Shown: piece after piece, positions 2,354-42,236 of the stretch | How the letters are laid out: each line of letters begins with the position of its first letter | Position numbering within the stretch: the first letter of the stretch is position 1 | From: a virus | DNA length: 42,236 bases | Reading direction: 5' to 3' (one strand) | UHGV virus genome: UHGV-1360403 | Made by a program: the position numbers and the translations under genes | The notes under the pieces: model-generated | What the model was told of the DNA's origin: nothing | The model's input: the letters and a program-made list of their open reading frames with translations, nothing else | Database searches by the model: none

Positions 2354-3115
2354 TTACGAGGAAGCGTTAGCTATTTGAGCTTGTGTAAATTCGAAACCAG
2401 AATTTTGTAACCGTTGCACTAGACGAGGAACTGTTTCACGTACATGGTCGTTGAAATTCAGATACAAAATCCCGTTAGCATCAGAAGGCTGTTCTAGGTG
2501 CTGTTTCTGAAGGATTGCTACATTGCTGCGCCCTAAGGACGAAAGAAGCATACCCATCTCGAGTACAACGTTCTGTCTTGCGCGGGGTTGGATTTCTGCT
2601 TCACCGGCGCGCTTTGAGTATCCCATATCATCAGGTGTCAAAAGAACAATCCCGAAACGAGTAGCAGTTTGTCCTTGCCCAATTTCACGTTCAAGCTCTT
2701 CAATAATGGTGAGTCCAGTCCCTCCCGTATTCTGCAAAATGAAATGGTCTGGTAATCCAAGTTTATGAAGGATTAGCTCAAGTTGTTCCTTTGCAGTATG
2801 GTCATGGCCGTGAACAATGAATATCTTTTTGGGAAGCTCAGATGGCTGTTCTACGGCTAGTGGTGTTGCCGTGGGGGGCGTTCCTAAATGGGACATTATT
2901 GCAGTTTCAACATTGGGACGTTCTTGAGGGTTCCCTTGAAACTGAATGGTCCGGGTGGTGTAAAGGTTAACAATTACGCCATTCGTTAAACGATAGCAGT
3001 CATAAGTCTCACGCTGTTCGTGGGAAAAATTGGTGAACCCACACTCCCTCAAAAAGTCAGGAAAAGATTCTCTCGGGTATGGATAGTTGATCGGCATTTC
3101 AGTTAGTTCCTGCAT
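2354..3115 (-). CDS. TIR-like domain protein (253 aa): novel ~100-aa N-terminal domain plus C-terminal TIR-like nucleotide-binding domain
   Basis: KIFIVHGHD...GIVLLTPDDMG...ARQNVVLEMGMLLSSLGRSNVAIL matches the 'predicted nucleotide-binding protein containing TIR-like domain' pattern; own terminator downstream; lower G+C than PolA by eye. Confidence 0.65.
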   Translation of the reverse strand: MQELTEMPINYPYPRESFPDFLRECGFTNFSHEQRETYDCYRLTNGVIVNLYTTRTIQFQGNPQERPNVETAIMSHLGTPPTATPLAVEQPSELPKKIFIVHGHDHTAKEQLELILHKLGLPDHFILQNTGGTGLTIIEELEREIGQGQTATRFGIVLLTPDDMGYSKRAGEAEIQPRARQNVVLEMGMLLSSLGRSNVAILQKQHLEQPSDANGILYLNFNDHVRETVPRLVQRLQNSGFEFTQAQIANASS

Positions 3116-3179: not shown

Positions 3180-5243
3180 TCAATCTTTTTTGTAGTGGTA
3201 CGCCTCAAAGCCGCCAGCGTTCAGCGGAATATCGGGTGCCCATTCGGGGTTAGTGGAGAGAAGCGCGGAAAGCGCTTTATCGTTGAAATCTTCTGTGTCT
3301 GGTGCTTCGGTGATCACCTCGTCGTGTACCGTTAGCACAATGCTGTAACCGGCACCCTCGATCAGCGGCATGTTTCTGGCTAGAACGTCGCGGGCGGCCG
3401 CCTGGGTGACGTTCTCCACCAGCTTTCCGCCGTAGGTTTTGAGTCGTTGCCATTTACGCGAATAAGAGTTAACACCCATGTAGGTGATATTCCCTTGTTC
3501 GATAACCGGAGACGGGTAGCATACAGCGCGTCCGGATGGTAGCTGTATGCGCAGCCACGCGCCATCACGTCGGATTTTAAGATAGCCGCAATACAATGTT
3601 TTTTGCGGTGTGGCGATTGCTGTGCGGACAGTGCGCTCCAGCTCGTACCAGAAATCGCAGGTCGCCGGGTGCGCCCTGCGCCACAGGCGCTTGAGCGAGT
3701 CACATGCGATGAATACACGCTCGGACAGGCCAAAGGTCGACTTACGCTTAACCGATTCGTCGTACCAGCTTTTTGCCTCGCGGATAACATCGCGGGGAAT
3801 GTTTGGCAGTGCGGCGTTCGCCAGCTCGTCGAGATCGAGACCGTAAACCAGAGCAAAAGTGATGAAAGCCGATACACCACCTCCATAACCCAGACCGAGT
3901 TCCATGACTTTACCGATCTGACGCATGTGTTTATCAACATCATCTGGTGCAATATCGAAAGCTTTTGCATACGCCAGTTTATATAAGTCCGGACCCGTTC
4001 CAGCGTCATACTCTCTGAATGCATTCAGTTTCCATTCTTCTCCCGCCAGCCATGCCAGCATACGGCCTTCAATGTTTGACAAGTCACTTACCACTAGTTT
4101 TTTGCCTGTTGGCGCGATAATGCAGCCACGTAACGCTGAACTGGTTAGTTCCATGATATTGTCAAACAGCAGGTCTGCACATCCGGCTTTCAGTGCTTCG
4201 ATGCCTTCGTCTATTTGTTCCTGTTTTAGTGAAGGGCGGGGAAGGTTCTGGGGCTGGAATAGCCGTCCGGCCCAACGACCGGTACGTGACGCCCCGCAGA
4301 ACTGTAGCGTACCGCGTAAGCGCCCGTCGTGGCTTACGCCTTTCATCAGTGCCTTGTATTTACTGGTGCTGGTAGTACTGGCTTGCAGGCGGATAGCCAG
4401 CAGTTCTTTCACGGCAGATGATAAATCGGGGTCGGCCATACGACGTTCCAGGGTACTGCGTTGCATGTCTGGTAGCTCCACACCGTAGGATTCAACGATG
4501 TGCTTAATCAACGCGTCCCGTTGTGTGGCTGCCTGCACTTCGCCATCAGTCATTTCCTGTGTACGCTTTGCCAGGCGCTTTTGCTCCTGGTCTACCGCTT
4601 CGATCGCAGCGCGCGCGAGTTGCATGTCCATGCAGACGCCCCGGTCGTTGATCTGCTGATCACGATGCCAGAGCGCCAGCTCTGTCCCCTGATAATTCCA
4701 CTTCGGCAGACGTTTATAGACTTCACGCATTGCTTCGATATCCAGTCCGGCGTAAGCAACAAAGCGCCGCCATTCTTCCGGATGGGTTTTACTGGTGGCC
4801 CGACGCAGTTTGCTGTTTTTCGGACGTGGCTTACAGAACAGCTGGATCAGCGCTTTACCTTCTTTGTCCTTCGCTTTGTCTTGCGGGACGCCTAGTACTT
4901 CGCAGAGTTCCCCCAGAGACCCCGGGAGACCGTGCGCCAGCGCCTGCACCATCGTGTCGCGCCAACGTTCGACTGGCGGTGCCAGTCGCGGCATTGCATA
5001 ACGCAGAACGGTGCGGTCGAAGTGAGAGTTATGGAAATAAAGCAGGGTTTCAGGGTCTGCGATTGCTTCGTATAAGCCGTGTGGAATACCACCACCGGCA
5101 GTGATATCCCACACGTTTACTGGCCCGTCGTTGATAGCCCATGCGAAAAGCATCACTTCAACGCCTTCGGCATACGCATGGGTACCGTTCGTAATAGGGA
5201 TTTCGCAATAGGTTTCCAGGTCGCCCCATAGTATATTGGACAT
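3180..5243 (-). CDS. Family A DNA polymerase (PolA-like, with 3'-5' exonuclease region)
   Basis: 687 aa; N-terminal exonuclease-like region and C-terminal polymerase region (...[14 protein letters not shown]..., ...[11 protein letters not shown]...). Confidence 0.85.
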
Positions 5244-5289
5244 GTGTTTACCTAGGTTTTTATTCTATTAACTGATTAAAAGATTAATT

Positions 5290-5919
5290 ATGCATATGAT
5301 CCAATACTTGATTGACCATACAGAGCATCTGGAGAAAATAGCTGGATATATTTTTTCATGTTTGATTGTTATGGGAGTCTGGATAAGAAAGATCATTTTT
5401 AATTATAAGTATAAAGAGCCTAAATATGTCAAGAAGTTAATTTTATATTTAATTAAGTATGAACGTTATCTGGATAAGGAGGATAAGAAAGCCATAGAAA
5501 AAAGAATAAATGATAAAATTATTCGTGATGCGCTGAAATTGCAATCCTCTTATAACCGAAGAGATGTTATTTACATTTGCAATAGATTAGAAAAAAGACA
5601 GTATATAAATCAGTTGATTAAGCTTCAGAATTATATAGAGAAAGATAACGGAGTGTTTTTTATTAATGTTGATTTTTCAGGTTTTTTATTTATTATTAGT
5701 CGTCTGTTTTCCTTTCTGTGTTTTGTGCTGTTTACCCTTTTTTCTATTATCTGCATTATTTCCATAGGGCAAAATGAAGGCCTTTTAAATTATCTTGTGT
5801 ATATGGTTATGATAATAGTTTTAGAGACTGTTGGTTTTTGGATGTATGATACTTTCCCGTCTAAGAAAAAGATCTGTGAACTAAATAAAGAATTGAGAAA
5901 GATTAAGATTCCTGAGTGA
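5290..5919 (+). CDS. AT-rich Lys-rich membrane protein (209 aa, about 3 predicted TM helices), opposite strand to the replication operon
   Basis: Very AT-rich ORF; hydrophobic stretches IAGYIFSCLIVMGVWI, FLFIISRLFSFLCFVLFTLFSIICIISI, LVYMVMIIVLETVGFWMY. Confidence 0.6.
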   Translation: MHMIQYLIDHTEHLEKIAGYIFSCLIVMGVWIRKIIFNYKYKEPKYVKKLILYLIKYERYLDKEDKKAIEKRINDKIIRDALKLQSSYNRRDVIYICNRLEKRQYINQLIKLQNYIEKDNGVFFINVDFSGFLFIISRLFSFLCFVLFTLFSIICIISIGQNEGLLNYLVYMVMIIVLETVGFWMYDTFPSKKKICELNKELRKIKIPE

Positions 5920-5937
5920 TTATACGCCTAATCAGTA

Positions 5938-5956
5938 GCCCGGTGTTTAACCGGGC
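5938..5956. terminator. Hairpin between convergent genes (possible bidirectional terminator)
   Basis: GCCCGG-TGTTTAA-CCGGGC inverted repeat; no clear T-tract. Confidence 0.3.
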
Positions 5957-34788: not shown

Positions 34789-35465
34789 GCAAATACACCG
34801 AACTAATCACGAACTACCACGCCACCAAACCTAAATTTCTTGCGCATGTTGATCTGATGACCCGGCCACTTATTGATGTTGCGGCTGCCACCAGAGGGCT
34901 GATTAGTGCATTTGATATTGACTCTGCGGTTGGTGTGCAACTTGACATCCTTGGATTGTGGATCGGACGTAGCCGTGTTGTCAGCCAGCCTATCTCAGGT
35001 GTCTATTTCAGCTGGGATACCGACGGGCTTGGATATGATCAGGGGGTATGGCAGGGACCATACGATCCTGATTCAGGATACATGTATCTCAGCGATGAAA
35101 CTTATCGTGTCATTCTTAAAGCGAAGATTGCGATTAATAACTGGGACGGACGGAATGATTCGCTTCCGGCAATTCTTGACGCGGCAACAGCAGGATCCGG
35201 GCTGCGAATGCAGATAGTCGATAACCAGGACATGACGATATCGGTCTGGGTCTTTCCTGATACTGATATTTCAGATGTATCGCGTGAGTTAATTGCGGCA
35301 ATTAAACAGGGGTATCTCACAGTAAAAGCCGCCGGGGTATGGGCGGGTGGCATTGAAACACCTTCGGTGGAAACCCCATCGGAAGGCTCAAAATTTTTTG
35401 GTTTTGATATGGATAACGAATTCATCAGTGGTTTTGATGTAGGAGCATGGGGAGTATTACTCTGA
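34785..35465 (+). CDS. Baseplate/tail protein (gpI-like position)
   Basis: 226 aa, coupled to the J-like gene and preceding the tail fibre. Confidence 0.5.
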
Positions 35466-36259
35466 TGGCGAAAAATGACTTTAAAGCGTTTGCAACGGAT
35501 CGAAATGCCAATGTTATATCGCAGGAGGAATGGGAAGCGTTGCCCGCGCTTTTATCTGGATTTACAGCAGGGAAAGCCTCCAGTGCGCAAGTCAATAAGG
35601 TTATTCGGCAGGCCAGCTTTATTGCTGCAGCTCTGGCCCAGTTTGTAAGTGATAAAACGCAACGGGATGTGCTTGATAATGGTGATCTGCCCGGTTTTGT
35701 TGAATTGCTGGGATCGGGGTTTGCTGTTGAATACCTGAGCCGCAAGAATCCGTTTGGCGATATCAAATCGGACGGCACGGTGAAAACAGCTCTCGAAAAC
35801 CTTGGTTTGGGAGAAGGTGCCCCAGCTATTGGCGTTCCGTTCTTCTGGCCGTCCGCTGCAATGCCAAATTCTGTCATCGACAGCTGGTCCGGTATGGTGT
35901 TTTTGAAGTTTAACGGGGCGAAATTTTCTGCCTCTGATTACCCTGTGCTGGCGAAAGTGTTTCCTTCGCTGGTATTACCTGAAGCCCGCGGTGATTTCAT
36001 TCGTATCTGGGATGACGGGCGAGGTGCAGACGGTGGTCGCGAATTATTAAGCTGGCAGGCAGCTACAAACTTTTCTCAGTTTGCCGGGAATATAGGCGAT
36101 GGTGCGGGCCACACAATTAATTTTCATGATGGTATCGCCGGAAATCAGCCAGGATTTTCACGATTTAATTTCACCAGTAACTCTGTGGGTGATGGTGTGA
36201 ATTTTGTTGCCGTCAGACCGCGAAATATTGCATTTAACTTTCTGGTGAGGGCTAAATGA
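35447..36259 (+). CDS. Tail fibre protein (constant N-terminal part to codon 123, then variable C-terminal part Sv in the current orientation)
   Basis: 270 aa; tail-collar-like segment [41 protein letters not shown]; inverted-repeat crossover site inside at 35802-35816. Confidence 0.7.
35802..35816. repeat. Left inverted repeat of the invertible tail-fibre segment
   Basis: TTGGTTTGGGAGAAG; perfect reverse complement at 37611-37625; encodes (N)LGLGE in the fibre. Confidence 0.7.
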
Positions 36260-36852
36260 TGACCCCAATTTTTGATGAAAATGGACTGGCTACAGTGCCG
36301 GGCGATATGCGTTGTTTTTATTATGATGCTGAAACATCTGAGTATACGGGCTGGTCTGATGAATATATTAATACTGGCGTAAGTATGCCCGCCTGTTCCA
36401 CTGGAATTAACCCTGGCGAAAACATTCCGGGAAAAGTGGCTGTATTTACAGGTAAGGGATGGAGCCATGAAGAGGACCATCGCAATGAGACTGTTTACTC
36501 AATCGAAAATGGCGCAGCTGTTACAGTGGATTATATCGGTGCCATCAAAGATGGTTATGTCACGCTTTCACCGTTAACGCCATACGATAAATGGGATGGT
36601 GAGAAATGGGTGACGGATACCGAGGCACAGCATAGCGCCGCAGTAGACGCGTCAGAAGCACAGCGCCAGTCACTGATTGATGCAGCAATGGCTTCCATTA
36701 GTCTGATTCAGCTGAAATTACAAGCCGGGCGGAAACTGACGCAGGCAGAAACAACCCGGCTTAACGCTGTGCTGGATTACATTGACGCGGTGACGGCAAC
36801 AGATACCAGCACCGCGCCGGATGTCATCTGGCCTGAACTGCCGGAGGCGTAG
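36256..36852 (+). CDS. Tail fibre assembly protein (Tfa/U-like)
   Basis: C-terminal ...[26 protein letters not shown] is a typical Tfa signature. Confidence 0.75.
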
Positions 36853-37264
36853 GCCATTCAATATCTGGCGCACCGGAAGTATCGACCAGTTCCAGTGCGT
36901 CCAGATAATCCAGCCACAAATTATATTGCACCAGTTCCTCACCTTTCAGGCGACCAATCGCCGCTTTACCAGGCCATTGCTTACTGTTTATGTATTCGTT
37001 GACCTGATTAATCAATTGCTGCTTTTTCAGTTCGGCTGCGGCAATTTGTTCCTCATGAGTTGGCGGTGGAATATCAATCCATGCAGGCATTCCGTCGATG
37101 ACACCTCTGTATTTTCCTTCTGGTGCTTCCTTCATAAATTCGGCAGCAACAGTGTCGTCAATTTCGATTCCATCATCGGGCCATTCGCCGGATTCCTGAT
37201 AAGCGATTTTAAGCTCCACAGGGAAAAACGCATTTTTATCGGCACTGAAAATATATTTCTGCAT
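36824..37264 (-). CDS. Alternative tail fibre assembly protein (U'-like), inverted orientation
   Basis: C-terminal ...[29 protein letters not shown]; convergent with and overlapping the plus-strand Tfa. Confidence 0.7.
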   Translation of the reverse strand: MQKYIFSADKNAFFPVELKIAYQESGEWPDDGIEIDDTVAAEFMKEAPEGKYRGVIDGMPAWIDIPPPTHEEQIAAAELKKQQLINQVNEYINSKQWPGKAAIGRLKGEELVQYNLWLDYLDALELVDTSGAPDIEWPTPPAVQAR

Positions 37265-37266
37265 TT

Positions 37267-37625
37267 CTACCGTCCTATCGAAATATAACTGAATCTGTAT
37301 TGCTGTGAGATATCACTGGTTGCCACACGCCACGCTGAATTACTGATATGTTCAAAATTTACAGACAAAACCTGCGGGGCAGGATTCGACGGGTCTGACT
37401 GAACGGCATCAGACATAACACTGACTGAAATCATCGGCTGATTAGGGAATGGTATAGGGAAGTGTCCACTGATAAAGCGGGTCGTGTTTCCTGAAAAAGT
37501 GCCAAACTGAACAATATATCCACCTGGTAGCCTGAACCATCCCGAACCAGAAGCGAATGCTCCCATATCCGGTATCTGATTATCTCCTGTGCCCACATTC
37601 CGTTTTGCCGCTTCTCCCAAACCAA
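37267..37625 (-). CDS. Alternative tail-fibre C-terminal cassette (Sv'-like), expressed only after inversion
   Basis: Minus-strand ORF reads ...INVGLGEAAKRNVGTGDNQ... through the right inverted repeat, sharing GLGE with the fibre at the crossover; the upstream ATG (37665) is probably fortuitous. Confidence 0.55.
37611..37625. repeat. Right inverted repeat of the invertible tail-fibre segment
   Basis: CTTCTCCCAAACCAA, reverse complement of 35802-35816; flanks agree at 5 of 7 further positions. Confidence 0.7.
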
Positions 37626-37691
37626 CGTTTATGAAAATGCAGAAATAACGAGCAAATGGCATCATTCCTGCTTTTGTCAGAGGGATCCACT

Positions 37692-38006
37692 ATGCTTATT
37701 GGCTATGTACGTGTGTCAACAAATGACCAGAACACAGATCTACAACGTAATGCGCTGAACTGTGCAGGATGCGAGCTGTTTTTTGAAGACAAGATAAGCG
37801 GTACAAAGTCCGAAAGGCCGGGACTGAAAAAACTGCTCAGGACATTATCGGCAGGTGACACTCTGGTTGTCTGGAAGCTGGATCGGCTGGGGCGCAGTGT
37901 GCGGCATCTTGTCGTGCTGGTGGAGGAGTTGTGCGAACAAGGTGTTAATTTTAGTAGTTATGTTATTACAGGTGGGGGATTTCTCCCCCTTATGCAGATT
38001 TTCTAG
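37692..38006 (+). pseudogene. Serine DNA invertase (Gin/Hin/Pin/Cin family), 3'-truncated
   Basis: MLIGYVRVSTNDQNTDLQRNAL...DTLVVWKLDRLGRS...GVNF matches the catalytic domain of Gin-type invertases; similarity stops near 37952 and the ORF ends after an unrelated 17-aa tail; no C-terminal HTH. Confidence 0.75.
37974..37989. repeat. Short GC hairpin at the junction between the invertase remnant and the low-GC island
   Basis: GGGGGA-TTTC-TCCCCC. Confidence 0.4.
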
Positions 38007-38010
38007 TTAA

Positions 38011-38856
38011 CTATTGGCGAAGTGGCCATATTTTTCTGTTTTTTAAAAAACTATCTTCAACTATATAACTGCAACAATGTTCACTAAGGCCATAAAAACT
38101 AATTATTCCATATTTATGAGAAGCTATATCAGACAGTTCTGCTAATACTGTGGCAAGCCAACGAGCGATGCTAAGAGAATAGAATCTTCCCCACTTTTGA
38201 ACAATGGTATTTTGTCCAGTACGGATGGAGGCTGATATAAGGTCTTGCATAATGTTGGTACTTTCATTCATATACATGACCGTTGTATACGGTGAAAGAG
38301 TGGCATTGATAAACCTAGCATTTTCTTCAACACGTCTTTGTTCAACTGTATAATAATAATGTTTTTCAAGGATACTCTCGGCTACTTCTCCCCACCATTT
38401 ATTAATAGGTTCATTATTGGTTAAATTGGGGCTGCTTAATGAGGAGAAATTTGCGTAACGTCCCCGTCGGGCATCAGCAAAGGAATCTAAACATTCAAGT
38501 ATTTTGTAGGTAATTTTATGTGTAGGACGTGAATATCTCAGAGATAGTTGCATTTTTTTAGAAATACTATCAACCTCGTTGGTTAATTCAATGAGCTTAT
38601 GTCCAAATTTTCTTACAATATTCTCATCAGGCATTTTCCCTTTGTGTTCAATGGCATAGTGTGCAACAAGTATTAGTTTAGCAAGTCTCTCAAAACCTAC
38701 AGAAAGCCCAAAAAATGCTGTGTAATATTCACCTATTTTGTCTGCATAATTGGCTTTACCTATGGCTGTTGCCCCAGAACCAATGAGCTGTGTAACTAAA
38801 GATGCTTCTCGGCCCAGAGCGTGCCATGCTGGAATATCCCAGGGATTTTTATTCAC
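38011..38856 (-). CDS. AT-rich cargo protein (281 aa), function unknown
   Basis: Long AT-rich ORF in an AT-rich block that interrupts the invertase; R-x5-H (RYSRPTH) noted but not diagnostic. Confidence 0.55.
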   Translation of the reverse strand: MNKNPWDIPAWHALGREASLVTQLIGSGATAIGKANYADKIGEYYTAFFGLSVGFERLAKLILVAHYAIEHKGKMPDENIVRKFGHKLIELTNEVDSISKKMQLSLRYSRPTHKITYKILECLDSFADARRGRYANFSSLSSPNLTNNEPINKWWGEVAESILEKHYYYTVEQRRVEENARFINATLSPYTTVMYMNESTNIMQDLISASIRTGQNTIVQKWGRFYSLSIARWLATVLAELSDIASHKYGIISFYGLSEHCCSYIVEDSFLKNRKIWPLRQ

Positions 38857-38984
38857 TTTATTATTTTCCTTTGCTCATAAATTTAAATTGTTTGAGTATC
38901 TCATAAAATATAAGGAGATGGTTAAGGTTGTTGATCGCATATAATAGCTATTGAAAGTCAAGAACTCGGTTTTATGTTCTACCA

Positions 38985-39023
38985 CTAATTAATATATTGT
39001 GAGTTTGACAATATATTAATTAG
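38985..39023. repeat. Perfect 16-bp inverted repeat with 7-bp spacer
   Basis: CTAATTAATATATTGT-gagtttg-ACAATATATTAATTAG. Confidence 0.6.
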
Positions 39024-39157
39024 TATGATCAAACCAGCCATCAACTGATTCCTTGTATCTTTCAGAGTCTCCAGAACAAAAGCCTTAACGAATTCCTTAT
39101 TTGTGAGTGCCTTACCAAAAGCCCATTGTTGCAGGGAACGAGTATAAAACTCGCCAG

Positions 39158-39424
39158 CTACTGGAGCAGGCTACCTGATTGTCGATCGATTCCTGCGTCC
39201 ATATAGTCGATGGTCTTCTGGAGCTCTTCGATTAGGGCAATAGCTTTTGCTCGAGAAATGCATATTAGTTGATCCGGAAATTCTTGTAAGGGCCAGTTTG
39301 GTATACAGGCCATGTTATCAGTGAAGGATGCAGACAAGTAAACTTCATTGGTAACTAGGGAATAGCTTACCTCAAAATTGGTGAGTTCCGGCAAACTGCT
39401 AACGTTTGATTCTTTTCTGCGCAT
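39158..39424 (-). CDS. Hypothetical protein (88 aa) in the AT-rich island
   Basis: ORF only; no recognisable motif. Confidence 0.35.
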   Translation of the reverse strand: MRRKESNVSSLPELTNFEVSYSLVTNEVYLSASFTDNMACIPNWPLQEFPDQLICISRAKAIALIEELQKTIDYMDAGIDRQSGSLLQ

Positions 39425-39568
39425 AATATTATCCAGGACTGTAATTATGTACAGTTAATGGTCTTCAATTTCGAAGAGGGAGTCAAGGGGGAGTCTCAAA
39501 TGAACCTTTATAGAAAGGGGAGCTCTTTGTGTTGCTGAACGTATGCAAAATTTTTTTGCACCATAAAT

Positions 39569-39592
39569 TCAATAACACATTCAATAACACAT
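39569..39592. repeat. Tandem 12-bp direct repeat in an AT-rich non-coding region (candidate attP arm site)
   Basis: TCAATAACACAT x2; adjacent GCAAAATTTTTTTGC near-palindrome at 39545-39559. Confidence 0.45.
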
Positions 39593-39894
39593 TACTGCAT
39601 CACCATGAAAATAAATGTATTTTTATTTAATTTCACACATATCACAATTAATACAGCGTTTAGTAATTAGTAAAGACATTTCAATGAATTACCGTTAAAT
39701 CATTTTAAAAATCAGTAAGTTGTATCGAGTTTGTATGCTTTACTGTCATTAACTTACTGTATGTTGATCCAGTGTATTTAACCTTGATAAACTCAGTCCA
39801 GTAACACAAAGCCGCAACACATTGCATTTTGTCCCGTAGAAAAGACTTGTATGTGTGTGCTTGTTTTCTGCGCCTACGCAGATAAGGATTGAGA

Positions 39895-41292
39895 ATGCCG
39901 CGCACTGTAACACATAATCCGGATAGCCCCAATAATGACGATGTTTTAGCCGCATCTGAAAAATGGGACGCCTGTAAACCCCCCTATACCAGCGCACACA
40001 TGAAAATCTGTGTTGCTGCCGCCAAAATCATCCTCGCTGCTTCCGGCGTGGCTCGCCGTTCCAAATACGAAAAAGAGAACTATCTCCGTATCGATTTCAG
40101 CAAAGCCGGTAAGGTTACATTTTACGCCGAGTTTCCAAAAAAGATGGGCCTCAAAGGTAAAAAGCTCGGCGAGTGGCCGGAGCTCGCTATCCAGCTGGCG
40201 CGCGAAAAAGCGCTAGGTATGGCTGACGGTGGCCTGCGGGCAGAGTCCGTACATGCAGCGCTGGAAATGTACCGGGATGACCTCAAAGCCAAAGTCGCCC
40301 GGCAGAAGCTGAGCCCGGACAGTTTCACAACCTACGGGGTGCGTATCGACCGGATTAAAGCAACGTTCGGCGAGCGCGAGGTGTTCAGCGACGTAACATA
40401 CAATCGGCTGGTGGAAGTGCTGGACGAGTGGATCGCTACTCGCTCGAACAATAACGCCCTGGAGTTGTTTGCCGAGCTCCGTCGGTTCTGGAAGTTCTGC
40501 GCACCTACTCTTTGCAACGGCCGCAATGTTGCCGCCAGTCTGCCAGATGATTATGTTTCCTCCCGCGTACAGAAACCTACCCCCACACGGCTTTTTACCG
40601 ATATTGAATCAATCGCCCGACTCTGGCTCAATGTTGCTGCCTGCACCTCTGTACACCAGAAGAATGCTGTTCGCTTCATGATCATCACTGGTGTTCGTCC
40701 GATTAATGTCCATAACCTGCGCTGGGACTACGTTCACGAGGAGGCTGGTGAAATTGTTTATCCGGAAGGGGTTATCGGCATGCGAGGGGCTATGAAAACA
40801 CAAAAGGCTTTCCGCCTGCCGATAACCCCTGAGATCCGGCGGATTATCGACGAGCAGAAAGCCTGGCGTGATTCAGTTCCTGAGTGCAACAGGGATTATG
40901 TATTTTTGCAGCCACGTGATCCAATGCAGCCATTTTCAAAACGATCACTGGATAAGCTGGTGAAAACATACAGCCCGGACGGGGCTGTAAAAGGAATAAA
41001 ACATGATGGGACTGTTAAAGGGAAAGACGGTGCATTTAATACGATGTGCCGTAAATTCCTTAAGAGCAATGTTATTGCCTTGATGAAGGAAAGAGGCTAT
41101 TCCCGCTCAGACCGAAGGGAAATCAGCCTCCTTTGCCTTCACCACTCCAGCAAGTCAGATGACCCGATGGCAGAACATTACGACTTTTCTGATGAGATTT
41201 TACAGGAAGAGATTGCGTTGAAGCGCGAAGCTTTCGAGGCTCACGAGCGGAGCATACTTGCGCAGGTGGCATTGCTACGGCGGCGAGGTTAA
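39895..41292 (+). CDS. int: Tyrosine integrase (P4/CP4-like family)
   Basis: Catalytic-domain pattern ...IITGVRP... (box I Arg), ...MKTQKAFRLP..., ...LLCLHHSSKSDDPMAEHY (His and catalytic Tyr); ATG at 39895 with AAGGA 7 nt upstream. Confidence 0.8.
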   Translation: MPRTVTHNPDSPNNDDVLAASEKWDACKPPYTSAHMKICVAAAKIILAASGVARRSKYEKENYLRIDFSKAGKVTFYAEFPKKMGLKGKKLGEWPELAIQLAREKALGMADGGLRAESVHAALEMYRDDLKAKVARQKLSPDSFTTYGVRIDRIKATFGEREVFSDVTYNRLVEVLDEWIATRSNNNALELFAELRRFWKFCAPTLCNGRNVAASLPDDYVSSRVQKPTPTRLFTDIESIARLWLNVAACTSVHQKNAVRFMIITGVRPINVHNLRWDYVHEEAGEIVYPEGVIGMRGAMKTQKAFRLPITPEIRRIIDEQKAWRDSVPECNRDYVFLQPRDPMQPFSKRSLDKLVKTYSPDGAVKGIKHDGTVKGKDGAFNTMCRKFLKSNVIALMKERGYSRSDRREISLLCLHHSSKSDDPMAEHYDFSDEILQEEIALKREAFEAHERSILAQVALLRRRG

Positions 41293-41489
41293 TACTGGCT
41301 GCGACATTTTTGAATAAAAGCGTCGATATTTCGGCGCTCATAACGAACTACTTTTGCACTGAAACGAATTGGTGCCAGGATAGCCCGATGACGATGCTTA
41401 ATATTCCACTCACATAGCGTTTTCTGTGTAATACCTAACTTTTGGCATACTTCATCCGGGGTGAGTAAATCGTCGGGTTTCTCGCTCAT
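41289..41489 (-). CDS. AlpA/excisionase-like small HTH DNA-binding protein
   Basis: 66 aa; LLTPDEVCQKLGITQKTLCEW HTH; start ATG overlaps the helicase stop (ATGA), stop overlaps the int stop. Confidence 0.6.
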   Translation of the reverse strand: MSEKPDDLLTPDEVCQKLGITQKTLCEWNIKHRHRAILAPIRFSAKVVRYERRNIDAFIQKCRSQY

Positions 41490-42236
41490 GCTATACCTCT
41501 CTTTTTCATGGCATCGAGCAGGATGTCCTGCACTGTTCGTTTTGAGTTGCGCCGCTCCATCACCATTTCATCCATAGTGTCGGCAGCAATAATGTGGTGA
41601 ATAAATACCGGACGATTGTGTCCGGCCTGTATCTGCCTGGTGGGGCCGATACGTTCAATAATTTGCTGATATTGCTCCAGGTCCCACCAGTGTGAGAAAA
41701 ATACCAGTATATTTCCGCCGTCCTGCATGTTCAGGCCGTGGCCCGCGCTGGCTGGGTGTGCAAAGAGAACAGGAATCTTTCCGGAATTCCAGTCGCGCAG
41801 TGTCTGTGGATCCTGGTCGAGGTGACGACCGCGAGGGAATGCTTTAAGCAAGCGTTCAAGATCGTGTTTCCAGTGATAAGCAACCAGCACAGGTGCGCCA
41901 GCTGCTTCGGTCAGTATGCTGTCCAGCGCCTGTAGTTTGGTGTCATGCAGTTCTGACCAACTTCCGGTGTCATCTGTGTATACTGCGCCGCTGGCGATTT
42001 GCAGACACTTCAGTGTCTTTGCCGCGGCGTTCGGTGCTTCGATGCCTTCGCCATTCAGCTCGAGGAACATTTCCTTTTCCATTTCACGATACTGCTGACG
42101 GGCCTTCGGTGGCATATCCACGCGGATTACGTTATGGATGGGGTCTTTGATATCGAACCAGTCGGCCGCATCCAGCGAGAGGGTTACATCGGCTAACGCT
42201 CGCTGTATTTCACCCTGTGAGTGAGCAAAAGGCTCC
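41486..42236 (-). CDS. SNF2-family helicase, C-terminal part (5' portion is 1..644 across the junction)
   Basis: Helicase C-domain motifs (...VLFAHPASAGHGLNMQDGGNILVFFSHWWDLEQYQQ...); reading frame open to the window end and continuous with 1..644. Confidence 0.85.
   Translation of the reverse strand, partial: EPFAHSQGEIQRALADVTLSLDAADWFDIKDPIHNVIRVDMPPKARQQYREMEKEMFLELNGEGIEAPNAAAKTLKCLQIASGAVYTDDTGSWSELHDTKLQALDSILTEAAGAPVLVAYHWKHDLERLLKAFPRGRHLDQDPQTLRDWNSGKIPVLFAHPASAGHGLNMQDGGNILVFFSHWWDLEQYQQIIERIGPTRQIQAGHNRPVFIHHIIAADTMDEMVMERRNSKRTVQDILLDAMKKRGIA

Follow-up and report, generated by a model that had tools for sequence, protein, structure and literature searches.

What fills the AT-rich DNA between a truncated tail-fibre invertase gene and the integrase gene of a temperate phage, and what might its one long gene do? 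The phage, UHGV-1360403, is referred to here as the window (the whole stretch analysed, 42,236 nt). It is complete and circularly closed at 42.2 kb, and its integration target is the 5' end of E. coli yfhL. GC content across positions 37953-39894 is 0.366, against 0.491 for the whole window. The initial annotation had described this part as a 1.9-kb cargo island, and all the elements it listed are present: AT-rich DNA, an invertase remnant, two ORFs, a palindrome, and a non-coding stretch with a 12-bp repeat. The island itself had to be reduced in size. Variable cargo is present, and comparison with the related prophage of E. coli Rb-50 confines the swapped part to ~1.18 kb. The features up to the attachment site are the following.

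37692-38006, plus strand: Pin/Gin-type serine invertase pseudogene, 3'-truncated (Pfam, RefSeq, alignment break)
37958-39140, no strand: swapped cargo segment of ~1.18 kb, GC 0.36 (blastn against the Rb-50 prophage)
38011-38856, minus strand, GTG start: candidate single-gene anti-phage effector of 281 aa, all-helical, HEPN-like fold
38860-38934, minus strand: two putative sigma-70-like promoter matches, 38934->38907 and 38887->38860 (consensus scan)
within 38860-38934, minus strand: putative ribosome-binding site (RBS) AAGGAAAA upstream of the 281-aa gene
38984-39024, no strand: perfect 17-bp inverted repeat with a 7-nt spacer (sequence scan, shuffle test)
39016-39135, minus strand: decayed 3' remnant of a dinI-like gene (nucleotide identity, annotation, residual peptide)
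39158-39424, minus strand: 88-aa ORF, phrog_17793, function unknown in PHROG (match 5.8e-46)

The Rb-50 prophage occupies the same chromosomal site. In blastn alignments, its homology to the window stops at ~37952-37957 and restarts at ~39141-39143; the flanks are 93% identical and the interior is unrelated. In Rb-50, pinE is intact (184 aa), and the gene after it is a different one, of 215 aa. Related prophages inserted at this site in E. coli have an intact invertase, and their alternative 215-aa product is a membrane protein. Here, the AT-rich segment took the place of the invertase 3' end, as had been proposed, and also of the usual 215-aa gene. The block is thus not syntenic in all relatives that have an intact invertase, and the refuting condition set for the island at the outset did not overturn it. 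The window-type segment was found in 44 of 5426 complete E. coli genomes (98.5-100% nucleotide identity over 1.19 kb) and lies beside the truncated invertase in every one of the 60 records listed. The 215-aa allele was found in 80 genomes; both counts are to be set against the ~121-129 genomes bearing the backbone. With conserved flanks and differing content among relatives, the slot between the tail-fibre invertase and the conserved 88-aa ORF is a two-allele cargo slot in E. coli. The alignment break and the two alleles bear out the proposed variable site beside attP and the integrase gene in a temperate phage, and the locus offers a clean natural case of allele swapping at a prophage-end slot. 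The phage lineage also has the PADLOC candidates PDC-S35 (TIR) and, in Rb-50, PDC-S25 (SIR2).

The swapped segment contains one intact gene, the decayed dinI-like fragment and the perfect 17-bp hairpin. At its left border, the invertase ORF spans 37656-38006, with the true start at the ATG at 37692. It is homologous to pinE up to ~37957 (residue ~88 of 184) and ends with 16 unrelated codons and a stop. Unlike Rb-50 PinE, which has both the Resolvase and HTH_7 domains, the remnant matches the Resolvase N-terminal profile of Pfam (145 positions) at positions 2-98 only and has no HTH_7. RefSeq labels it a pseudogene ('incomplete, missing C-terminus'). Judged by this domain content, which falls short of a full serine-invertase domain, it is a pseudogene. 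The dinI-like remnant retains 74-76% nucleotide identity to dinI-like genes in other E. coli prophage or plasmid records, together with a residual peptide match, FVxETLKDT.

The 88-aa ORF had been counted as cargo; it is instead conserved backbone. No gene on its arm lies closer to attP, its nucleotide sequence is 93% identical in Rb-50, and in 30 viral contigs it adjoins attP while the genes downstream vary widely. Judged by their N-terminal sequences alone, the genes that follow it in other phages are acyltransferase-like, lipoprotein-like or of other kinds.

Nor is the ~460-bp non-coding stretch with its 12-bp repeat cargo: it is the attP site itself, and its features are listed below.

39425-39888, no strand: attP region, AT-rich and non-coding, 464 bp, between the 88-aa ORF and int (att alignment; prophage ends map within)
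39567-39590, plus strand: tandem 12-bp repeat ATTCAATAACAC x2, candidate arm-type integrase sites (sequence scan)
39623-39679, minus strand: phage-borne substitute yfhL 5' end, MSLLITKRCINCDMCE... (translation)
39632-39649, no strand: 18-bp attP core, TTCACACATATCACAATT (four-way alignment with the K-12 empty site)
39895-41292, plus strand: tyrosine integrase (Pfam Phage_integrase, PHROG integrase, RefSeq annotation)

The core TTCACACATATCACAATT is identical in attP, attB, attL and attR and corresponds to yfhL codons 11-16. The phage inserts within the first Cys-cluster codons of E. coli yfhL. In one genome, the prophage ends are at 39632 (attL side) and 39669 (attR side), and the prophage is 38 bp longer than the window. 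An identical core, phage arms and an adjoining int gene, 245 bp from the core, together characterize a tyrosine-integrase attP. Upon integration, the phage-borne 5' end makes yfhL whole again at attL; the annotation of the Rb-50 lysogen shows an intact yfhL. The locus also exemplifies a phage that brings its own replacement for the host-gene 5' end into which it inserts. A third TAACACA is located at 39802, beyond the tandem repeat; the motif occurs five times in the 42-kb window (both strands), three of them inside the 464-bp attP region. This enrichment suggests that the 12-bp repeats are likely integrase arm sites. Origin of the integrase from a second element was ruled out: the two ends of the window join up in the prophage, where attL and attR belong to a single 42.27-kb insertion. 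An integron attC-like or tRNA-linked origin of the window copy was rejected as well (no tRNA and no Rfam match).

The remaining question concerns the 281-aa protein. Scans with Pfam, NCBIfam, PHROG and PADLOC gave no usable match (in Pfam, none at E<=1), and no PADLOC v2 model, embedded-gene PDC candidates included, recognises its family. In the literature, no mention of the protein accession or the phage names was found, and the E. coli protein accession is absent from the searchable part of the DefensePredictor supplements. Relatives are nevertheless numerous: one search returned 486 matches, and clustering at 50% left 954 representatives, nearly all of 265-290 aa. They are spread over many phyla, including Proteobacteria, Actinobacteria, Nitrospinota, Fibrobacterota and Gemmatimonadota. 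In an alignment of 124 diverse members, E56, K60, H86, Y134 and W154 are invariant or near-invariant, as are E17, R57, R133, N136, E198 and R232. The protein belongs to a large, horizontally spread and unannotated family that current annotation and defence-finding tools overlook entirely.

These data bear on the idea that the ORF is a decaying, functionless remnant. It sits in a recombination scar between two gene remnants, the truncated invertase and the dinI-like fragment, and could have shared their fate. However, the ORF is full-length, its segment is nearly identical in the 44 E. coli genomes, length and motifs are conserved across the 954 clusters in many phyla, and the start codon and RBS are shared with relatives. 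The full-length ORF and the conserved family effectively refute decay, to which we give almost no credence.

We examined the fold of the protein by remote-homology and structure searches, which had been recommended at the outset and which produced a HEPN-like fold but no significant match to a HEPN family or a PDB entry. A HEPN core, that is, a four-helix up-down bundle of two alpha-hairpins with ~120-150 residues, is present in the 281-aa protein. By this modelled fold resemblance, the family appears to be built on a HEPN-like helical core. Neither the window protein nor its relatives gave a significant sequence-profile match to a HEPN-clan family in Pfam. The most recurrent sub-threshold match was HEPN_AbiV (3 of 124 members, best E 0.0022), and CARF_HEPN_mCpol was matched below threshold in 2 of 45 relatives. 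Three alignments searched as sequence profiles against the PDB matched nothing beyond noise (designed helical proteins, RicA), and Foldseek against the PDB found nothing below E 0.7. An internal duplication into two HEPN halves was rejected (hhalign probability 0.2%).

The R-x5-H motif RYSRPTH, noticed in the initial annotation, is present in the window protein. Its His is not conserved across the family, and we rejected it as a HEPN motif. The canonical Rx4-6H at the start of core helix 4 is absent from the family alignments. Instead, the invariant H86 has a variable R or K at position -4 (R82-x3-H86, an Rx3H spacing), and the near-invariant R133, in RY[A/Y]N, has no conserved His 4-6 residues downstream. 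The HEPN families AbiV and AF0298 keep the Arg without the motif His and use a conserved His located further towards the N-terminus (Anantharaman 2013, PMC3710099). The H86...R133 pattern appears compatible with this alternative-His arrangement. On these alignments, we do not file the protein as a canonical HEPN member; HEPN-like working is possible.

The genomic neighbourhoods of homologs were compared at 57 species loci. In at least 7 of these, the gene occupies the X position in the order hsdM-hsdS-X-hsdR, on the same strand and with gaps of 9-19 bp; an Enterobacter homolog lies directly downstream of hsdR. In a Serratia P2-like prophage, the homolog is found between gpA and the portal gene, beside a PvuII restriction-modification (R-M) system; its Morganella counterpart, also in a P2-like prophage, is flanked by gpG and the sheath gene. 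The two are close homologs (68-74% identity). Both positions are recognised P2 defence hotspots (PMC13586616). Further homologs are located within an integron cassette array of Vibrio cholerae and ~3.6 kb from a Thoeris pair in Chromohalobacter. About 85% of the homolog loci lie outside R-M operons, some as lone insertions among housekeeping genes, and the window copy has no R-M neighbour. No conserved partner ORF was seen across the 57 loci.

Another reading is a helical regulatory or binding protein with no part in defence, for example, a modulator of type I restriction complexes, a phage counter-defence factor or a lysogenic-conversion function. Sequence searches assigned the protein to no enzymatic family, helical bundles are common binding scaffolds, the same slot in other phages holds non-defence morons (O-antigen acyltransferase-like genes, lipoproteins), and some homologs sit among housekeeping genes. 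We nevertheless consider this role unlikely. The invariant charged and polar set (E, R, K, H, Y, R, N) looks more like that of a catalytic site, an anti-restriction factor would hardly be co-transcribed within host R-M operons, and P2 defence hotspots and integron arrays are places where the gene turns up repeatedly.

The DNA upstream of the gene was inspected for regulatory signals. The palindrome is perfect, as first described, and slightly larger: its fully complementary arms of 17 nt each lie at 38984-39000 and 39008-39024, rather than 16 bp within 38985-39023. Among 200 shuffles of the region, the longest such repeat had 11 nt, placing the palindrome far above chance. It starts at the former stop codon of the dinI-like remnant, and its RNA hairpin (~ -15 kcal/mol) is 128 nt upstream of the 281-aa gene. 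A role as intrinsic terminator was rejected, since the hairpin lacks a U tract, contains just 2 G-C pairs and was not called by a terminator scan. The palindrome does not accompany the gene elsewhere: missing upstream of homologs and confined to this prophage lineage, it was also rejected as a family-wide regulatory site. The upstream sequence shared with homologous loci is limited to ~25 nt including the RBS. Promoter-like matches number 11 (shuffled expectation, 7.2 +/- 2.4), which is not clearly above chance, and no terminator was called.

The hairpin lends some appeal to a different proposal, in which the 281-aa protein would serve as toxin in an addiction or toxin-antitoxin-type module, keeping the prophage or the island stable instead of acting against phages, with the upstream hairpin region as the source of the antidote. 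HEPN-like folds are common among toxins, and AbiV is a reported type III toxin neutralised by an RNA with a small hairpin (bioRxiv 10.1101/2024.05.05.592566). Yet neither the hairpin nor the upstream region is conserved at homologous loci, where just the ~25 nt around the RBS are shared; R-M-embedded copies leave intergenic gaps of just 9-19 bp; and neither a partner ORF at the 57 loci nor an Rfam match was detected. We regard an AbiV-like toxin module as quite improbable.

Taken together, we think it somewhat probable that the gene in the attP-proximal cargo slot encodes a stand-alone, abortive-infection-type effector that protects the lysogen; of the possible activities, that of a metal-independent RNase would be the likeliest. 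Made from the prophage, the protein would guard the lysogen against other phages. Its candidate active site would combine the invariant H86 with R133/Y134/N136 and E56/R57/K60 in an alternative-His arrangement. In the integrated state, host yfhH-yfhL transcription would enter the prophage in the sense direction for the 88-aa ORF and the cargo gene, and this read-through could supplement the cargo gene's own promoter-like sites. More speculatively, and with clear doubt, the family may be an unrecognised clade of HEPN-like RNases with a non-canonical site (His86 with Arg133, Tyr134 and Asn136), acting as a self-contained guard effector without an ATPase. Within type I R-M operons, its role would be a PrrC-like backup to restriction. 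Standing alone in prophages, P2 hotspots and integron cassettes, it would itself detect a phage trigger and stop translation. If the protein is a working defence gene, it adds a widespread single-gene system, with hundreds of clusters, to the anti-phage repertoire. Copies nested in R-M operons and solo copies in prophages would then provide a simple system for studying how a small HEPN-like effector is silenced and triggered without an ATPase or antitoxin.

How does this effector candidate compare with known systems? One of the closest is AbiV of Lactococcus, an abortive-infection protein (HEPN_AbiV, PF18728; PDB 9bj5), whose Pfam threshold no member of the 281-aa family reaches. AbiV has 201 aa, in line with the single HEPN domain of ~200 aa typical of its family, whereas the window protein has 281 aa and adds a second helical half at the C-terminus as well as a beta-hairpin. 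AbiV has a cognate abiV2 RNA; no conserved RNA or protein partner and no upstream RNA element was found for the 281-aa family (57 loci; Rfam). Unlike AbiV, the family is mostly from Proteobacteria and other Gram-negative phyla and often lies in type I R-M operons.

With the anticodon nucleases PrrC and RloC, some homologs share the operon slot hsdM-hsdS-X-hsdR, the strand and the tight spacing. The logic of PrrC, a latent RNase of HEPN type that backs up restriction, is a plausible model for the family (PMC3710099). PrrC and RloC, however, join an N-terminal ABC-ATPase to a C-terminal HEPN domain; the 281-aa protein is half their size and has neither an ATPase domain nor a P-loop (Pfam, NCBIfam, model). 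Since most members, including the window copy, have no R-M neighbour, the protein must act autonomously. Nesting of an uncharacterised gene in type I R-M operons is also the basis on which the PDC candidates of PADLOC were proposed (guilt-by-embedding; Payne et al. 2024, bioRxiv 10.1101/2024.01.29.577857). The PDC/PADLOC v2 models miss the 281-aa family, which appears uncatalogued in PADLOC.

P2-like phages have two hotspots, one near cos (the tin/old locus) and the other at Z/fun, and the Serratia and Morganella homologs occupy exactly these two slots. The window slot follows the same logic: a temperate phage keeps the flanks and exchanges the single gene between them. The window phage is not P2-like: its replication module, integrase and head genes differ, and its slot lies between the tail-fibre invertase and attP. 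This arrangement may resemble the right end of the e14 prophage of E. coli K-12, where pinE is followed by mcrA beside the attachment site. There, a defence gene separates a Pin-family invertase from the end of the prophage, as the candidate gene would in the window phage, and in both phages integration into a host ORF is accompanied by a replacement gene end. The e14 prophage replaces the 3' end of icd and has an intact invertase, whereas the window phage replaces the 5' end of yfhL. McrA, an HNH type IV restriction enzyme, would be unrelated to the 281-aa protein.

Both flanks of the cargo region were located in the same E. coli chromosomes by two megablast searches. The match of window positions 37600-39669 terminates beside yfhH (attR side), and that of 39632-42236 starts beside yfhL (attL side). 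In strain WP3-W18-ESBL-08, the two prophage end points are separated by 42,274 bp, which exceeds the window length by exactly the 38 bp common to both matches, and in the related prophage of E. coli Rb-50 the window end joins the window start contiguously. Thus, the window is the entire genome of a temperate phage in its circular (excised) form, opened within a helicase gene. The integrase and the cargo region lie on opposite sides of an intact attP and face one another. Alignment of four sequences (the empty K-12 site, the window, one attR, and one attL) resolved the attachment region as follows:

39567-39590, tandem repeat, two copies of ATTCAATAACAC, 42 bp from the attP core in the arm opposite the yfhL 5′ end
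39632-39649, attP core, 18 bp, TTCACACATATCACAATT, identical in all four sequences
39623-39679, minus strand, phage-borne yfhL 5′ end with its own first ten codons to the right of the core, ATG at 39679

The core corresponds to codons 11-16 of the small ferredoxin gene yfhL, at the first Cys cluster. The phage brings a replacement start codon and ten initial codons, and lysogens are accordingly annotated with an intact yfhL; the phage-borne version has two substitutions within the first 16 residues. Insertion inside the 5′ coding region leaves yfhL intact yet separated from its native upstream region, and native yfhH-yfhL transcription is directed into the prophage end. TAACACA occurs five times in the whole 42-kb window, three times within the 464-bp attP region; we infer that these copies and the ATTCAATAACAC repeat are putative arm-type integrase sites. 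Rfam and tRNA scans of the attP/cargo region detected no Rfam family and no tRNA. The AT-rich noncoding DNA of about 460 bp with a tandem repeat, which the initial annotation had counted as cargo, does exist, and the four-way alignment identifies it as attP.

The prophage of Rb-50 shares its integrase and insertion site with the window, to which it is 97-100% identical across most of its length. Such a comparison with a related phage had been proposed for defining a 1.9-kb cargo island; homology breaks at approximately 37957, within the invertase gene, and restarts at approximately 39141. The swap was thereby confirmed, and its extent was reduced to this interval. In Rb-50, the invertase PinE is intact (184 aa, with both Resolvase and HTH_7 domains), while the window contains a pseudogene with only about 88 homologous residues left. 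PinE is followed by a minus-strand 215-aa gene (Rb-50 locus L002, 42786-43433). Its product, without a match in Pfam or PADLOC, has an N-terminal hydrophobic stretch that is, judged from the sequence, probably membrane-spanning, and may serve in superinfection exclusion or defence.

Of 5,426 complete E. coli genomes in which alleles were counted, approximately 121-129 contained the backbone flank, made up of the 88-aa ORF and the P arm. The 281-aa segment was present in 44 and the 215-aa allele in 80; the latter, the commoner of the two, always comes directly after the 88-aa ORF with a gap of about 60 bp. At this cargo position, E. coli has two alleles. The 88-aa ORF (39158-39424, minus; phrog_17793, function unknown), previously also regarded as cargo, is kept beside attP in 30 viral contigs with differing downstream genes, showing that it belongs to the backbone. 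Its downstream arrangements are:

281-aa gene and truncated invertase
215-aa gene and invertase, intact or truncated differently
further genes in other phages of enterobacteria, among them acyltransferase-like and lipoprotein-like ones, as judged by N-terminal sequences only

Slot, boundaries, and attP anatomy are assigned with high confidence. E. coli CAU16175 (L014) has IS421 separating the invertase remnant from the 281-aa gene, with an IS3-family element and a rearrangement nearby; NMBU_W05E18 (H17) has IS1 inside the region matching the prophage end.

The swapped segment has a mosaic structure of its own; a decayed dinI-like 3′ end makes up the 120 bp on its right:

39016-39135, minus strand, decayed dinI-like gene fragment inside the cargo segment

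A perfect 17-bp hairpin begins at the former dinI stop codon. It is statistically real, confined to this prophage lineage, and was not found upstream of 281-aa homologs; it is not a canonical terminator, and a terminator scan did not call it. In another E. coli prophage (L102), the dinI-like gene between an invertase and an integrase is intact and has a CTGT-N8-ACAG sequence resembling an SOS box, an arrangement that hints at the source-phage type of the cargo segment.

The 281-aa protein (38011-38856, minus) is named hypothetical by every source and had no match in the Pfam, NCBIfam, PHROG, or PADLOC libraries. Its family is very large and clearly delimited: one search returned 486 matches, and clustering at 50% gave 954 representatives, nearly all 265-290 aa long and aligning end to end. 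Identities of 47-74% extend across Gamma-, Alpha-, and Betaproteobacteria, Mycobacterium, Nitrospinota, Fibrobacteraceae, Gemmatimonadota, and Binatia, a spread typical of horizontally moving genes. Among 124 diverse members, E56, K60, H86, Y134, and W154 are invariant, and E17, R57, R133, N136, E198, and R232 nearly so. This conservation contradicts decay, and effectively excludes that the ORF is a decaying remnant.

The RYSRPTH (R-x5-H) motif noted initially is not conserved among family members, and the canonical Rx4-6H motif is absent from the family. No internal duplication was detected. The deep-alignment AlphaFold model is confident (pLDDT 96.2, pTM 0.93). Of the proposed remote-homology and structure searches, Foldseek and every sequence search against solved structures were negative. 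Among the structural matches listed for the model, HEPN or KNTase_C-type domains formed the majority of those aligning over more than about 105 residues; AbiV was one of them, at 18% identity. HEPN_AbiV was also the most recurrent weak Pfam match (3 of 124 members). The remaining listed matches of this length were helical bundles of membrane or regulatory proteins. One rival explanation is that the protein is not an enzyme or has no part in defence. In a published survey of HEPN domains, AbiV and the AF0298 type retain the Arg but not the motif His, and rely on a conserved His nearer the N terminus (PMC3710099). The H86...R133 pattern would be compatible with this arrangement under a hypothetical residue mapping. 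The protein probably cleaves RNA via a noncanonical HEPN-like site, a chemistry to which we assign lower confidence than to a defence role.

Genes for type I restriction subunits were the most frequent direct neighbours of the family across 57 species-level loci. At least 7 of these loci have the homolog placed co-directionally between hsdS and hsdR, with gaps of 9-19 bp (order verified by Pfam in three loci), the same operon position as that of PrrC. Relatives in defence or mobile contexts, with 68-74% identity except where stated, were:

Enterobacter, island edge, immediately after hsdR
Serratia, P2-like prophage, between gpA and portal genes, adjoining a PvuII R-M system
Morganella, P2-like prophage, between tail-fibre assembly and sheath genes
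Chromohalobacter, about 3.6 kb from a Thoeris pair
Vibrio cholerae (L116, L117), 60% identity, apparent chromosomal integron cassette array

The Serratia and Morganella positions are the two recognised P2 defence hotspots (PMC13586616). Genes in the V. cholerae arrays are mostly co-oriented, with a SieB-like gene in L116 and a RES-Xre toxin-antitoxin pair in L117. In the alphaproteobacterium Acidibrevibacterium (L012 and L013, about 5750-5830), the homolog is a lone insertion beside an apparent tRNA gene amid housekeeping genes, indicating that the family also moves as a minimal islet. Upstream, homologs have no more in common than some 25 nt around the ribosome-binding site; what moves is essentially the bare ORF. 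A toxin or addiction function is a further rival; no conserved partner gene was found beside the homologs in the 57 loci. Most likely, the 281-aa cargo gene of this prophage encodes an effector of the abortive-infection type that works as a single-gene system; we have moderate confidence in this defence role.

After integration, host yfhH-yfhL transcription would enter the prophage and run in sense orientation first through the 88-aa ORF and next through the cargo gene; no terminator was called between this entry and the cargo gene. The 281-aa gene has promoter-like sites of its own; we infer both expression routes. No sigma-70-like promoter match lies on the strand of the 88-aa ORF between it and the attP core, so its transcription may depend on DNA across the att site, namely phage sequence in the circle and host yfhH-yfhL in the lysogen.

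The phage has other variable or defence features:

2354-3115, minus strand, 253-aa protein with a CAP12/Pycsar-type TIR domain (match to PADLOC candidate PDC-S35, E 1e-108)
5290-5919, plus (opposite) strand, AT-rich 209-aa ORF

The TIR protein, located amid early/replication genes, is likely a second defence cargo. The 209-aa protein, apparently membrane-associated by its sequence and without a family match, lies in another variable slot (4969-5938, versus L002 9266-11188) between the DNA polymerase and DUF2815 genes, where Rb-50 has a SIR2/STALD protein matching PADLOC PDC-S25. The tail-fibre/assembly-gene segment (35447-37665) is in opposite orientations in the prophages of WP3-W18-ESBL-08 (L001 5866-8066) and 22AR0747 (L118 855-3019), both with the same truncated invertase and cargo segment. 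Thus, the segment still flips, presumably in trans through a Pin-family invertase from another prophage.

PADLOC v2, including its embedded-gene candidates, misses the 281-aa family, and a limited literature search found no published description of it. Cargo slots at prophage ends and HEPN-like Abi genes are known already. The novelty lies in the family, which is widespread and unannotated and is distinctive in its architecture and its set of motifs.
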